A DNA stretch of 64,000 bases. It comes from Octopus vulgaris. Lineage: Eukaryota. How positions within the stretch are numbered: the first letter of the stretch is position 1; each line of letters opens with the position of its first letter. This document shows positions 8,397-49,421 of the stretch, in pieces. The notes beneath the pieces are model-generated. The model did no database searches. It saw only the letters and a list, made by a program, of their open reading frames with translations, and was not told where the DNA came from. The stretch is taken from the NCBI GenBank assembly GCA_951406725.2, contig OX597830.1, positions 33,480,001 to 33,544,000 of the forward strand. The letters are read 5' to 3'. The position numbers and the translations under genes are program-made.

Positions 8397-8749
8397 TATA
8401 TGTATATACACGTGTATGTATATCTATATATCTATCTATTTATATAATAAGGGATAAAATCATTCATGATTGTATCAGGTGGTCAGCGTGAAAATAAAAA
8501 CCTTATAGGTAAATTTTCTAAATATTATATTAATAATTATATGCATAAAGATGACAAGGGATCAGAAACAAGCCTCCCCACATGCTGGAAATAGATGCTA
8601 AATCATGCTGCTGTGGTTTTAGTGTCATTTGGCATCTATTTTCAATGTTTGGACAAGCTTGTCAAAAAATAGTACTCAAATACCAAAGGCAGAGTAAGAT
8701 GCTTTTTTTTCAATAAAGCTGTAAAAATATCACAAGAGTCTTAATCACT

Positions 8750-31032: not shown

Positions 31033-31945
31033 TATGTTTGACTTTTGCTTTATGTCTGTACAAGTTGGCTCCAAGTCTCACCCAGAGACCTCAAGAGACA
31101 ACAGGTTGGAAGTTCACGTTGTTGTTATGCCTAGTGTGCCATATATATATATTTATTTTTTTTTTGGTGTTGTACTAGTGAATGTCTAATACATAAATTA
31201 AAAAAAAAAAAAGAAACAAAAAATTTGTTTTAAACCTTGGGATTACTTAGAGAGTATTTTGTGTAGGATATGAGCAGTTCCCATGAGCACTATCTTTTGA
31301 ATTTCTGCCATTTTGGGGTTTCCTGGTATCTGAGTTAGGTAGCAATCAGCCCCTTTCGCTATCATTCCCAGGGCACCTATGACAACAGGTATTGTTTTAG
31401 TCTTCAGGTTCCACATTTTGCTGATTTCTATTTCAAGATCTTTATATTTGCTCAGTTTTTGGTAGGTCTTGACAGATACGTTTATATCGATTGGGACAGT
31501 CATATCAATGAGGAGGCATGTTCTTTGTCTGAAGTCTTTCAATATGATGTCTGGCCTATTTGCATCTATCTTTCTGTCAGTTTGAATGGTGAAGTTCCAG
31601 AGGAGTGAGATGTGGTCATTTTCAAGCACTGGAGGTGGATTGTGTTCCCACCAGTTTTTTTCATGGGGCAAATCCAGGTTTTTGCAAATTACCCAGTGAA
31701 TATATTGTGTAGCTATATCATGCCTGTTGAGGTACTCTGTAGGCGCTAGAAGACTGCACTTGGAGACAACATGATCAATGGTTTCATTTTGTTGTCGGCA
31801 TACACGACATGTTGGGCTGCTGCCGTTTTTAATATGTTGGCCTGGTAGTTTTTTGTTGGTAGGCATTGATCTTGAGCTGCTATGATAAACCCTTCTGTTT
31901 CAGATTTTAAACCAGAGGCTATTAGCCATTGATGGGTCAGTATTC
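31033..31945 (-). mobile_element. R4/Dong-like non-LTR retrotransposon 3' fragment (CCHC knuckle + restriction-like endonuclease)
   Basis: WLIASGLKSETEGFIIAAQDQ, then after a frameshift CRVC..ETIDHVVSKC, RHD, RPDII, LIDMTVP, KLSKYKDL, PVVIGALG; (AAT)n on both sides. Confidence 0.92.
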
Positions 31946-44697: not shown

Positions 44698-44857
44698 GCA
44701 GGAGTGGCTGTGTGGTAAGTAGCTTGCTAACCAACCACATGGTTCCGGGTTCAGTCCCACTGCGTGGCACCTTGGGCAAGTGTCTTCTGCTATAGCCTCG
44801 GGCCGACCAAAGCCTTGTGAGTGGATTTGGTAGACGGAAACTGAAAGAAGCCCGTTG

Positions 44858-44892
<35 letters not shown>

Positions 44893-45431
44893 GTGTATGT
44901 GTGTGTATATGTTTGTGCGTCTGTGTGTCCCCCAACATCGCCTGACAACCGATGCTGGTGTGTTTATGTCCCCGTCACTTAGCGGTTCGGCAAAAGAGAC
45001 CGATAGAATAAGTACTAGGCTTAGAAAGAATAAGTCCTGGGGTCGATTTGTTCGACTTAAGGCGGTGCTCCAGCATGGCTGCAGTCAAATGACTGAAACA
45101 AATAAAAGAGTAAAGAGTATAATAAATTCAAGCTACTGATTATCATCGTCTGCCTTTCATGCTAGCATGGGTTGGATGATTTTGACTGAGGGCTGGCAAA
45201 CCAAACAGCCGCACCAGGCTTCAATCTTGATCTGGCAGAGTTACTACAGCTGGATGCCCTTCCTAATGCCAACCACTCCGAGAGTGTAGTGGGTGCTTTT
45301 TATGTGCCACCGGCACGGGGCCAGTCAGGCGGTACTGGCAATGACCTTGCTCAAATCTTTTTACACATGCCACCAGCACAGGTGCCAGTAAGGCGACGTT
45401 GGTAATGATCACACTCAAATGGTGCCCTTCC

Positions 45432-45469
<38 letters not shown>

Positions 45470-45716
45470 AGAAAAATACATTCCTACATAGGGGTACACA
45501 GAAAATATAAAGGCGCAGGAGTGGCTGTATGGTAAGTAGCTTGCTAACCAACCACATAGTTCCGGGTTCAGTCCCACTGCGTGGCATCTTGGGCAAGTGT
45601 GTTCTGCTATAGCCCCAGGCCGACCAATGCCTTTGGTAGACGGAAACTGGTAGACGGAAACTGGTAGACGGATTTGGTAGACAGAAACTGAAAAAAACCT
45701 GTCATATGTATGTATA

Positions 45717-45760
<44 letters not shown>

Positions 45761-45970
45761 TGTGTGTGTTTGTATGTCTGTGTTTGTCACCTAGCATTGC
45801 TTGACAACCGATGCTGGTGTGGTTATGTCCCCATTACTTAGCAGTTCGGCTAAAGAGACTGATAGAATAAGTACTGGTCTTACAAAAGTATAAGTCCTGG
45901 GGTCAAGTTGCTCGATTAAAGGCGGTGCTCCAGCATGGCCGCAGTCAAATGCCTGAAACAAGTAAAAGAG
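44698..45970. mobile_element. Cluster: SINE A + (44698-45118), RTE tail - (45140-45425), SINE A + (45512-45970)
   Basis: Family-diagnostic heads and tails as in the other copies. Confidence 0.9.
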
Positions 45971-46104
45971 TATACTGTTACTTGGTTTTCATTTATTTAT
46001 TATTTGGTAAGTATTTACTAAAATGTTTAGTCACATTTTGGTGAGGAATGGTCAGTGTTCAGATCGAATGAATTCCCATTTGTCCAAATTTGTATTATTC
46101 ACTT

Positions 46105-46521: not shown

Positions 46522-46579
46522 TTTCAACTGACGAGGCAAAGCATTCATAAATGCAAAGTCAGAAATCTGGATCTAGAAT
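46522..46579 (+). ncRNA. Type-I minimal hammerhead-like motif, copy 1
   Basis: CTGACGA at 46528-46534; GGC-GCATT..AATGC-GTC stem II; A-GAAA-T-CTGG-A-TC; imperfect stem I. Confidence 0.4.
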
Positions 46580-47311
46580 TATCCAGTAATTTTTTATTCA
46601 TTTCATCTTGTCGCTTTGTTTTTTCTCCGTGTTGATATATGAACAATTTAGGTGGTTTTAAAGTCAGATCATGGCTGCTATTTTCAGCATGGTGGTATCT
46701 CGTAGATACCCTAATTTATAATTTTAATAATTATTACCTTTGAAAGTTATTTTTTCCATGCTGACCACTTGATAAAATCGTTATTTTATTTTTAAATTAA
46801 TGATCTTATCCATATTTATATAAATTTAAATTTATTTCTACACTGTATTTACTGCGGCGATATTTTGACCATATCTCACATGGAATAAAATGGTGGGCAT
46901 TTTGAACTGGCCATGATGCATACGTGCATATATATGTAAGTATATGTTCGTATATGTAAGTATTTGTATGTTGTATTTATATATATATGTATTTATGTTT
47001 CTCTTCTGTGTGTATTCTACTGATGAGGCAAAGCATTTCTAAATGCAAAGTCAGAAATCCAGATCTAGAATTATCCAGAAATTTTTTACTCATTTCATCT
47101 TGTCCCTGTTTTATCTCCGTGTGGATATATGAACAATTTAGGTGGTTTTAAAGTCAGATCATGGTTGCTATTTTCAGCATGGTGGTATCTTGTAGATACC
47201 CTAATTTATAATTTTAATAATTATTACCTTTGAAGGTTATTTTTTCCATGCTGACCACTTGATAAAATCGTTATTTTATTTTTAAATTAACGATCTTATC
47301 CTTATTTATAT
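46527..47311 (+). mobile_element. Tandem ~295-bp direct repeats (period 492), each starting with a hammerhead motif: Penelope pseudo-LTR / retrozyme-like element
   Basis: Repeats 46527-46821 and 47019-47311 are highly similar; the element ends in (TA)n. Confidence 0.75.
47014..47071 (+). ncRNA. Type-I minimal hammerhead-like motif, copy 2
   Basis: Perfect stem I ATTCTA/TAGAAT; CTGATGA at 47020-47026; stem II GGC+GCATTT/AAATGC+GTC; GAAA at 47054-47057; AUC triplet ending 47065. Confidence 0.6.
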
Positions 47312-47359
47312 ATATATATACATATATATATATACATACACATACATATATATATAAAC

Positions 47360-47402
<43 letters not shown>

Positions 47403-47418
47403 CATATATATATATCTG

Positions 47419-47455
<37 letters not shown>

Positions 47456-47513
47456 GCATATAATATAATTCGAGACAAAACCACTATGTATATATGCATA
47501 TATATATATATAT

Positions 47514-47815
47514 GTGGAGGCGCAATGGCCCAGTGGTTCGGGCAGCAGACTCATGCTCGTAGGATCACGGTTTCAATTCCCAGACCAGGCATTGTGAGTG
47601 TTTATTGAGCAGAAATACCTAAAGCTCCATGAGGCTCTGGCAGGGGGTGGTGGCGATCCCTGCTGTACTCTTTCACCACAACTTTCTCTCACTCTTTCTT
47701 CTGTTGGCCTGGGCACTTAGCCAGCGGAATGGTGTCATTTGAAGGCTAAAACAATCCGAAGCGCATTGTGACCAGTGATGTGTAGCAACATCTGATAGCC
47801 TGGTCGGTCATGGTT
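47514..47815 (+). mobile_element. tRNA-derived SINE (distinct family)
   Basis: GTGGAGGCGCAATGGCCCAGTGG A box and GGTTTCAATTCC B box; unrelated body; inserted in (TA)n. Confidence 0.75.
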
Positions 47816-47876: not shown

Positions 47877-47902
47877 CATGTGTGTGTATGAATATATATA
47901 CA

Positions 47903-49421
47903 GATGAATTCTGGGTAGAAGTAGGGGTCCACCAAGGATCAGCCCTCAGTCCTCTTTTATTCATCATAGTCCTCCAGGCAATAACAGATGAATTCAAGAT
48001 GGCTTGCTCCTGGGTGCTCCTTGCCCTCACAGCAGAATCACTACCAGAATTAGAGTAGAAATTTCAGGTGTGGAAGCAAGGTTTCGAATCAAAAGGCTTT
48101 AGAGTCAATGTAGCAAAGACCAAAGTTCTAGTAAGTAGGAAGACGAATTCATCACATACCCTCTCAGGTAGGTGGCCCTGCTCGATGTGTAGAAAAGGTG
48201 TATGTAGAATCTCCATAAAATGTACCCAGTGTAAGCCAGGGACACATAAGAGGTGCAGCAACACCAAAGGAAAATTAACTGGGAAGACAGTTTTTGTGTT
48301 TGGCAGATGCACAGGGGCAATAAACACCACAGATGCTCAGAAAACAGATTCCATCACAATCCAGGGGGAGAAACTAGAAGTAGTTGATAGCTTCCACTAC
48401 CTAGGTAGCCAAGTTAGTATTAAGGGTAGATGCTCTGAGAGTGTTACCACTAGAATAAGAATAGCCTAGGCAAAGTTTAGAAAGCTTCTACCCCTGCTGG
48501 TTACAAAGGACATCTCACTCAGTGAAAGGTAGATTGTACAATGCATGAATGCAAACTTCCATCCTTCATGGCAGGGAAACATGGGCCATGACTGCAGAGG
48601 ATACGTGTTGGCTTGAAAGAAATGAGGCTAGCATGATTCGCTGGATGTGTAATGTCAGTGTGCACATACGACAGAGTATAAGCACCCTGTGAAAAATGTT
48701 GGACATAAGAAGCATCAGATGTGGCATGCAAGAGAGATGTTTGCACTGGTATGGTCATGTATTATGGATGGATGAGGAGAGCTGTGTGAAGAAGTGCCAC
48801 TCCCAAACAGTTGAAGGAATCTGGGGTAGAGGTAGACCCAGGAAGACATGGGATGAGGTGGTGAAGCATGACCTTCGACCGTTGGGCCTTACAGAGGCAA
48901 TGACAAAAGACTGAGACCTCTGGAGATATGCTGTGACTGCAAAGACCCGGCAAAAAGAGTGAGTTCACGGCTGTATCCTACACCAGTTTCACATAACCAG
49001 CCCCAGCCCACTCAAATGTACTTTGGATCGTGTGTGACCTGCTGTGCTTGAGGAGACCTATTGAGTCAAGTACATCAACATCAAAACAAAAATCAAATGG
49101 AAATTGTAGTTGTGATACTCGTGCCAGTGGCACGTAAAAAGCGCTATCTGAACGTGGCCGATGCCAGCACTGCCTTGACTGGCTTCCATGCTGGTGGCAC
49201 GTAAAAAGCACCAACCGATCTGTTGCCAGTCTCATCTGGCCCCTGTACCGGTGGCACATAAAAAGCACCCACTACACACATGGAGTGGTTGGCATTAGGA
49301 AGGGCATCCAGCTGTAGAAACACTGCCAGATCAGATTGGTGCCTGGTCCAGCCTCCTGGCTTTCCAGAACCCAGTCAAACCGTCCAGCCCATGCTAGCAT
49401 GGAAAACGGACGTTAAATGAC

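Follow-up and report, generated by a model that had tools for sequence, protein, structure and literature searches.

A dispersed family of retrozyme-like elements in Octopus vulgaris with an extra adenosine in the predicted hammerhead core

Animal non-LTR retrozymes, as described in the available text of PMC7229834 and bioRxiv 10.64898/2026.07.22.740005, are non-coding units of low G+C content and a few hundred base pairs, each with one type I hammerhead. They have a short palindromic helix III, lie as head-to-tail copies and occur alongside autonomous Penelope-like elements (PLEs). The mussel families have units of 350-390 bp (Cervera and de la Pena 2020, PMC7229834), and the group is described as derived from PLE terminal repeats (Li, Clavereau and Pollet 2026, bioRxiv 10.64898/2026.07.22.740005). 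PLEs themselves leave partial tandems, 5'-truncated copies and inversions at microsatellite targets (PMC8557442), and in a lizard PLE internal starts of reverse transcription (RT) define alternative 3' ends (PMC11167929). In one in vitro study, of the lizard PLE, ribozyme cleavage was dispensable for insertion and uncut RNA was the main template (PMC11167929); of nine predicted frog retrozyme dimers, eight did not cleave (bioRxiv 10.64898/2026.07.22.740005). Natural hammerheads vary in the core: single-base insertions (2a, 6a, 9a, 13a) are known, some of them in active ribozymes (Perreault et al. 2011, PMC3088659), nucleotide 9a occurs in the minimal hammerheads of PLEs, and the G10.1-C11.1 pair is described as highly conserved (PMC4209133). 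The axolotl retrozyme HHR_Amex2, whose helix II has U opposite U at its base, is slow yet cleaves (PMC7229834).

The window analysed here, a 64-kb stretch of O. vulgaris DNA, contains two direct repeats that are 94% identical over about 295 bp. Read directly, CUGACGA begins at 46528 in copy 1 and CUGAUGA at 47020 in copy 2, a period of 492 bp; GAAA follows at 46562 and 47054, in each case after an additional A (46561 and 47053), and an AUC triplet ends at 46573 and 47065, the predicted cut sites. Both hammerhead-like motifs (copy 1, 46522-46579; copy 2, 47014-47071; plus strand) have the type I core C3-U4-G5-A6-N7-G8-A9, G12-A13-A14-A15.1 and U16.1-H17, which in copy 1 occupies 46528-46534 and 46562-46565. 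Stem I of copy 2 is 6 bp long (AUUCUA/UAGAAU), its stem II consists of 3 bp, a purine internal loop and a 5-bp hairpin, and its stem III has 2 bp; in copy 1, pair I.2 is an A-A mismatch. The repeats, their period, both motifs and the intact stem I of copy 2 are thus as the original prediction had them. The apparent spacer of about 195 bp that this leaves between the repeats (46820-47013, plus strand) is the rest of the unit and stands in the same order at many other loci.

The motif does not stand out in the window by itself. A loose core pattern gave 11 matches in the 64 kb against a shuffle mean of 6.5, with 20 of 100 shuffles scoring as high, which is not above chance, and local folds at the motif show no exceptional stability (z -0.93 to +0.28). 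A check with hammerhead models had been proposed: the Rfam hammerhead models found no match at E<=10 between 44000 and 50000, whereas the pattern with stem filters added picked out copy 2 as its sole match in the window. In the whole genome RF00163 had six matches, none from the families described here; among the other hammerhead families that it matched (L314-L319), three have a very long helix II.

We searched the 2.8-Gb assembly (227 contigs) for the 492-bp unit, as had been suggested, and found a dispersed family with a consistent unit, here called family A. A first-look search with the repeat gave 2756 candidates, 40 of which, the window copy aside, scored at 91-94%. An 18-mer spanning the extra A has 326 exact matches in the genome, against one for a control and two for the version without the A. 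The spacer and the head-to-tail junction recur elsewhere (57 matches), so that the spacer belongs to the unit. When a natural 492-bp monomer was mapped on family A loci, 178 chains were obtained. The predicted cut site lies outside 63 of them, is crossed once by 111 and twice by four. At least 492 nt is reached by 37 chains, and the longest has 817 nt, or 1.66 units; neither two full units nor a longer array was found among the 178, a sample that covers part of family A and is biased toward long, hammerhead-bearing copies. Upstream of the hammerhead, all long copies re-enter the 3' module of the unit itself and never an ORF. We conclude that the insertion in the window is a single, decayed member of a non-coding family that is dispersed in the genome in at least hundreds of copies. 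The window copy shows no sign of a host function.

The 790 bp of the original prediction amount to 1.6 head-to-tail units of the element of about 490 bp, in one insertion (46523-47311, plus strand). It is 5'-truncated within stem I of the first hammerhead, and contains one complete 492-bp unit from predicted cut site to predicted cut site (46574-47065, plus strand). This unit has 29% G+C and no ORF of at least 150 aa, and no LTR, primer-binding site or polypurine tract was noticed in it by eye. Downstream of the second motif lies a conserved 3' module (47174-47254, plus strand), in which a 9-bp helix (47174-47182 with 47246-47254) encloses a 7-bp hairpin (47184-47200). Across the family loci collected, 3' ends fall at two fixed sites, about 150 and 250 nt beyond the cut site, and just before each stands a hairpin in which one pair shows a compensatory change from family to family. 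Site 1 (about 47210-47220 in the window, plus strand) lies just downstream of the 7-bp hairpin, which covaries between A-U and G-C; 53 of the 58 copies that end there run into a TA/CA repeat, and 86 others continue past it. At site 2, 80 of 86 ending copies run into such a repeat, and 66 others continue. The second conserved hairpin, with one U-A/A-U covariation, and site 2 after it occupy 47261-47311 (plus strand), so that the window insertion ends at site 2 and adjoins a (TA)n-rich microsatellite (47312-47460), the probable insertion target. The 5' ends of copies are scattered, and an opposite-strand piece is present at nine of the 27 loci of the 18-mer search. Family A thus has the partial tandems, 5' truncation, 5' inversion, AT-rich or microsatellite target and alternative fixed 3' ends of PLE insertions.

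Several other repeats lie in the window. SINE-like repeats, present in several copies, flank the insertion at 44700-45980 and 47450-47800; we take them to resemble cephalopod SINEs. Fragments that by eye look like LINE reverse transcriptase or C-terminal domains (47900-48500 and 31243-31899) are unrelated to the element. Older and more distant relatives of the 3' module, likewise ending in (TA)n, were seen in the window at 8453-8602 (minus strand), at L100 2622-2781 and at L318, and their sequences suggest a larger superfamily.

Three other families share this anatomy: B and C, the sisters of A, and a fourth, weakly homologous family, D. Family B is 71-76% identical to A, with a period of 485, and family C (L223-L281, e.g., L223 1516-1605, minus strand) is about 71-80% identical over long matches and has 151 exact pattern matches; of 65 family C candidates, 54 were parsed and 11 were not. 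Family D (L154 4530-5040, L284-L313) has a period of 456, a canonical hammerhead core and a 5-bp helix III. It is younger, differing by 2.6% from the column majority, and has the same two (TA)n-joined ends; its 3' module shows weak homology to that of A-C (E 6e-4 to 0.4). That D carries a canonical core at the same position within the same anatomy is a reason to read the motif of A-C as a hammerhead. The type I core letters seen in the window are also the majority in A, B and C, and they are identical among the three; outside the motif, by comparison, the three agree on the commonest letter in 103 of 168 columns. Of the core, 11 of the 12 columns match as aligned, and the twelfth is a matter of gap placement beside an insertion in C.

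The extra A had been regarded as a possible defect of the two window copies. Instead, it precedes GAAA in 97/99 copies of family A, 16/16 of B and 54/54 of C, and in 36 of 37 and 31 of 33 loci picked irrespective of it; because it is present throughout A, B and C, and given the 326 exact matches with the A and only two without, it is not a product of decay in the window. In consequence the canonical 10.1-11.1 pair does not directly adjoin A9 and G12 in A-C, the extra A intervening. The base of helix II is G-U in family B and an A opposite an A in family C, which also has an A after A9 (9a in 50 of 54 copies, partly by pattern selection, and 11a in all 54). Families A and B may, to judge from these sequences, have lost the 5' A of a C-like A-A state. 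An alternative register of helix II with the extra A as 11.1, examined by hand, was rejected, as it leaves that position unpaired in A and B.

Support for the hammerhead reading comes from covariation between the families. Among the 99 copies of family A, 80 have U-A at pair I.2 and 10 have C-G; all 16 of B have A-U, and 49 of the 54 of C have C-G. The covariation as a whole amounts to three or four events, and the copy counts are not independent support. Helix I is a 6-bp, open-ended helix supported by these pair types, and copy 1 in the window is mismatched at that very pair. Pairs of helix II swap between G-C and G-U, with pairing kept. When the named structure was imposed on 14 hand-picked copies, 99% of cells were paired and three pairs were changed on both sides, against 30-39% in a slid control, a score inflated by the relatedness of the copies and by the choice of structure. 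RNAalifold run on 14 copies did not recover stem I unaided, and the named-structure count leans toward stem I. The U at 1.7 is kept (98/99 in A, 16/16 in B, 53/54 in C), and a purine internal loop interrupts helix II; both may take part in a tertiary contact between loop 1 and loop 2. A lack of conservation or covariation of the stems and core would have spoken against the hammerhead: I.2 covaries between families, but within family A the core decays like its flanks. In loci not picked by their core, the counts were 16/407 for the core against 175/3510 for the flanks (p 0.40) and 9/362 against 130/3618 (p 0.37). In another comparison of copies the core had looked conserved (11/705 against 1122/28369), but this was discarded as a sampling bias, 30 of the loci having been picked by a pattern that contains GAAA. 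Since the core decays at the rate of the flanks, the genomic copies, those in the window included, are neutral fossils.

The two fixed ends before (TA)n, the 5' truncation and the inversions, together with the lack of an ORF, lead us to classify the element as a probable non-LTR retrozyme of the PLE type; judged by sequence, it has the short non-coding unit of low G+C content with one type I hammerhead that marks that group. Its units of 456-492 bp exceed the 150-450 bp given in PMC7229834 and lie within the 51-972 bp of bioRxiv 10.64898/2026.07.22.740005, as far as the available text of both goes. Whereas many retrozymes form multimers, the 178 chains sampled here have at most 1.66 units; the elements also differ in the extra A between helix II and G12 and in having two fixed, (TA)n-joined 3' ends, and here cleavage and circles are predictions. 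Tandems, truncation, inversions, microsatellite targets, a hammerhead in the terminal repeat and two alternative 3' ends that would fit internal RT starts are shared with the Neptune and Poseidon clades of PLEs and the non-autonomous MRC1 (PMC8557442, PMC4209133, PMC11167929, as far as the available text describes them). Those elements have a tail of 30-40 bp, whereas the ends here lie about 100 nt apart and the unit has no ORF; their hammerhead is of the minimal form, in contrast with the 6-bp helix I found here, as in the canonical type I. The PLE families sampled in this genome have no sequence link to the element. Natural variants are known to include core insertions and mismatches in the basal pair of helix II (PMC3088659, PMC4209133, PMC7229834), and the 9a of family C is among them, but an unpaired A located 3' of helix II, between positions 11.1 and G12, was not found in the accessible text of these sources. 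Neither an insertion between helix II and G12 nor a description of hammerheads in cephalopods was found in the literature available to us, the former within main texts, figures, supplements and Lunse et al. 2017 aside. Thus, the kind of element is already known, and the predicted ribozyme variant common to A-C appears, within that literature, to be new.

We consider it probable that the element is a non-LTR retrozyme of about 490 bp copied in trans by a Penelope-like RT/endonuclease, with a hammerhead that is predicted to be slow and would probably act as a dimer or with the help of a protein. In such a cycle, the transcript would come from a locus of at least two units, and a PLE protein would bind the structured module downstream of the hammerhead and nick (TA)n DNA. 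Reverse transcription would begin internally at either site, about 150 or 250 nt past the cut site, and the cDNA would run back through the hammerhead to a random stop. The copies left behind would be truncated at the 5' end, often inverted and up to 1.7 units long. The template would be an uncut multimeric RNA or a religated circle, because most of the sampled copies read through the cut site. The context of PLEs and retrozymes in which the original prediction had placed a type I hammerhead is in agreement with the core, the covariation and the PLE-like ends and truncation.

A different course, in which an active ribozyme releases a 492-nt monomer, a host ligase joins its ends to give abundant circles, and copies longer than the unit arise from these by rolling-circle reverse transcription, seems to us possible but not the likelier one. 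Such circles are described for the retrozymes of mussel, coral and axolotl in the available text of PMC7229834. The two halves of the same insertion agree in 106 of 116 comparisons of subfamily markers, against 82 expected if they were unrelated (columns at the (TA)n junction and CpG columns excluded), and are 93.0% identical, compared with 90.6% between insertions (27 pairs). An earlier count of this concordance (127/184) was set aside as distorted by columns at the (TA)n junction. A circle and a homogeneous tandem master would explain the concordance equally well, however, and the two hammerheads in the window differ at three of four markers, including one CpG. For the circular monomer the fold is calculated at -107.8 kcal/mol (z -4.3, 40 shuffles), but TA-rich self-complementary sequence contributes to this value, and none of the sampled copies attains two units. 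Nor do the 5' ends support the release of a 492-nt monomer and its closure into a circle, as originally envisaged: among 100 listed copies of 286 there is no excess at the predicted cut site, which is the exact start of one, and by eye six or seven breaks lie 4-13 nt upstream of it. Reads joining 47065 to 46574 had been proposed as a test for circles. Because that junction is ordinary linear genomic sequence in hundreds of copies, such reads cannot discriminate; the same joint, going back 492 nt, is also present in the two large ones among four sequencing runs examined as contigs; the type of these two is unrecorded, and they look DNA-like.

It is also conceivable, though we find it doubtful, that the mobile element is as we describe it and that the hammerhead of A-C is catalytically dead or nearly so, its fold being kept as a signal for a PLE protein and copies arising from uncut read-through transcripts. 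The extra A and the weak or non-canonical base of helix II would fit this, as would the missing spike of 5' ends at the cut site, the read-through of 115 of the 178 chains and the finding that ribozyme mutants left PLE insertion in vitro unaffected (PMC11167929, in its available text). Moreover, the imposed monomeric hammerhead folds at +2.5 and -2.9 kcal/mol against minima of -11.7 and -9.6, that is, 7-14 kcal/mol above the minimum. These points, together with the neutral decay of the core within the family, argue against activity. On the other hand, the catalytic core letters and the UC doublet at the cut are kept across three families that are 71-79% identical, which a protein-binding fold need not require, and the mismatched axolotl ribozyme of PMC7229834 cleaves, as noted above. 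Helix III, with 2 bp and a palindromic or near-palindromic loop, is predicted to be competent for dimers, as had been proposed: the duplex of copy 1 with copy 2 is calculated at -9.6 kcal/mol, that of a CpG-intact copy at -11.1, and four natural copies range from -7.8 to -11.1. The loops of the window copies, TCTGGA and TCCAGA, had been explained as decay products of a CpG in TCCGGA. Both are there, in line with that explanation, and TCCGGA occurs in 19 of 99 family A copies, but as a consensus it fits one subfamily, TCCGGGA being commoner (42/99). The core kept across families, the dimeric helix III and the precedent of natural hammerheads that are active despite a core insertion or a mismatched helix II base would, by modelling and analogy, favour activity.

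That the copies are the 5'-truncated 3' ends, or pseudo-LTRs, of an autonomous PLE outside those we found is unlikely. Most PLE insertions consist of truncated ends that carry a hammerhead, as the available text of PMC4209133 has it, and tblastn placed fragments of PLE ORFs near four distinct sites among the 248 family loci. The two of these sites examined, however, are insertions into a PLE body (L224 on the opposite strand, L144 with an inverted junction; the others are L155 and L210), and long copies lead upstream into the unit's own 3' module and never into an ORF. The defining feature of an autonomous PLE, an ORF with RT and GIY-YIG domains, is absent from the unit, which rules the element out as an autonomous PLE. 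Intact Neptune-type RT/GIY-YIG ORFs of 765-781 aa are present in the genome, as is another abundant PLE family; with a GIY-YIG scan, the flanks of PLEs, this second family and the tblastn search, neither the hammerhead nor the 3' module was found as a PLE's own end in about 75 PLE loci from a few families, the genome containing many more. A young Neptune-type PLE (L153 1293-3590, L331), with the intact ORFs at many loci, has in its 3' region a hammerhead-like motif of its own, with covariation at U3-A8.

Finally, a local tandem duplication with a hammerhead-like pattern by chance, for which the unremarkable loose-pattern count, Rfam search and fold z-scores might speak, is very improbable in view of the hundreds of dispersed copies with the same head-to-tail junction, which refute locality, and of three Watson-Crick pair types at I.2.

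To return to the probable trans-copied retrozyme, a hammerhead motif occupies the same place in four related families of high copy number, its core being odd in A-C and canonical in D. Should the extra-A form cleave, the hammerhead consensus would widen, and descriptor searches would be missing whole families; should it not, a ribozyme fold would have been kept without catalysis. We put forward only tentatively, as a rather doubtful proposal when taken whole, that the hammerhead of A-C works with an undescribed core, in which an unpaired A reached by way of an A-A intermediate separates helix II from the general base G12, that replication passes through a circle of 490 nt, and that two hairpins define the starts of reverse transcription. 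If a new active core and a circle were real, such motifs would be invisible to Rfam and standard descriptors, and families A-D would form a natural test series within one genome for the part played by the ribozyme when PLEs and retrozymes replicate. The two conserved hairpins before the fixed 3' ends are candidate start signals for a PLE reverse transcriptase.
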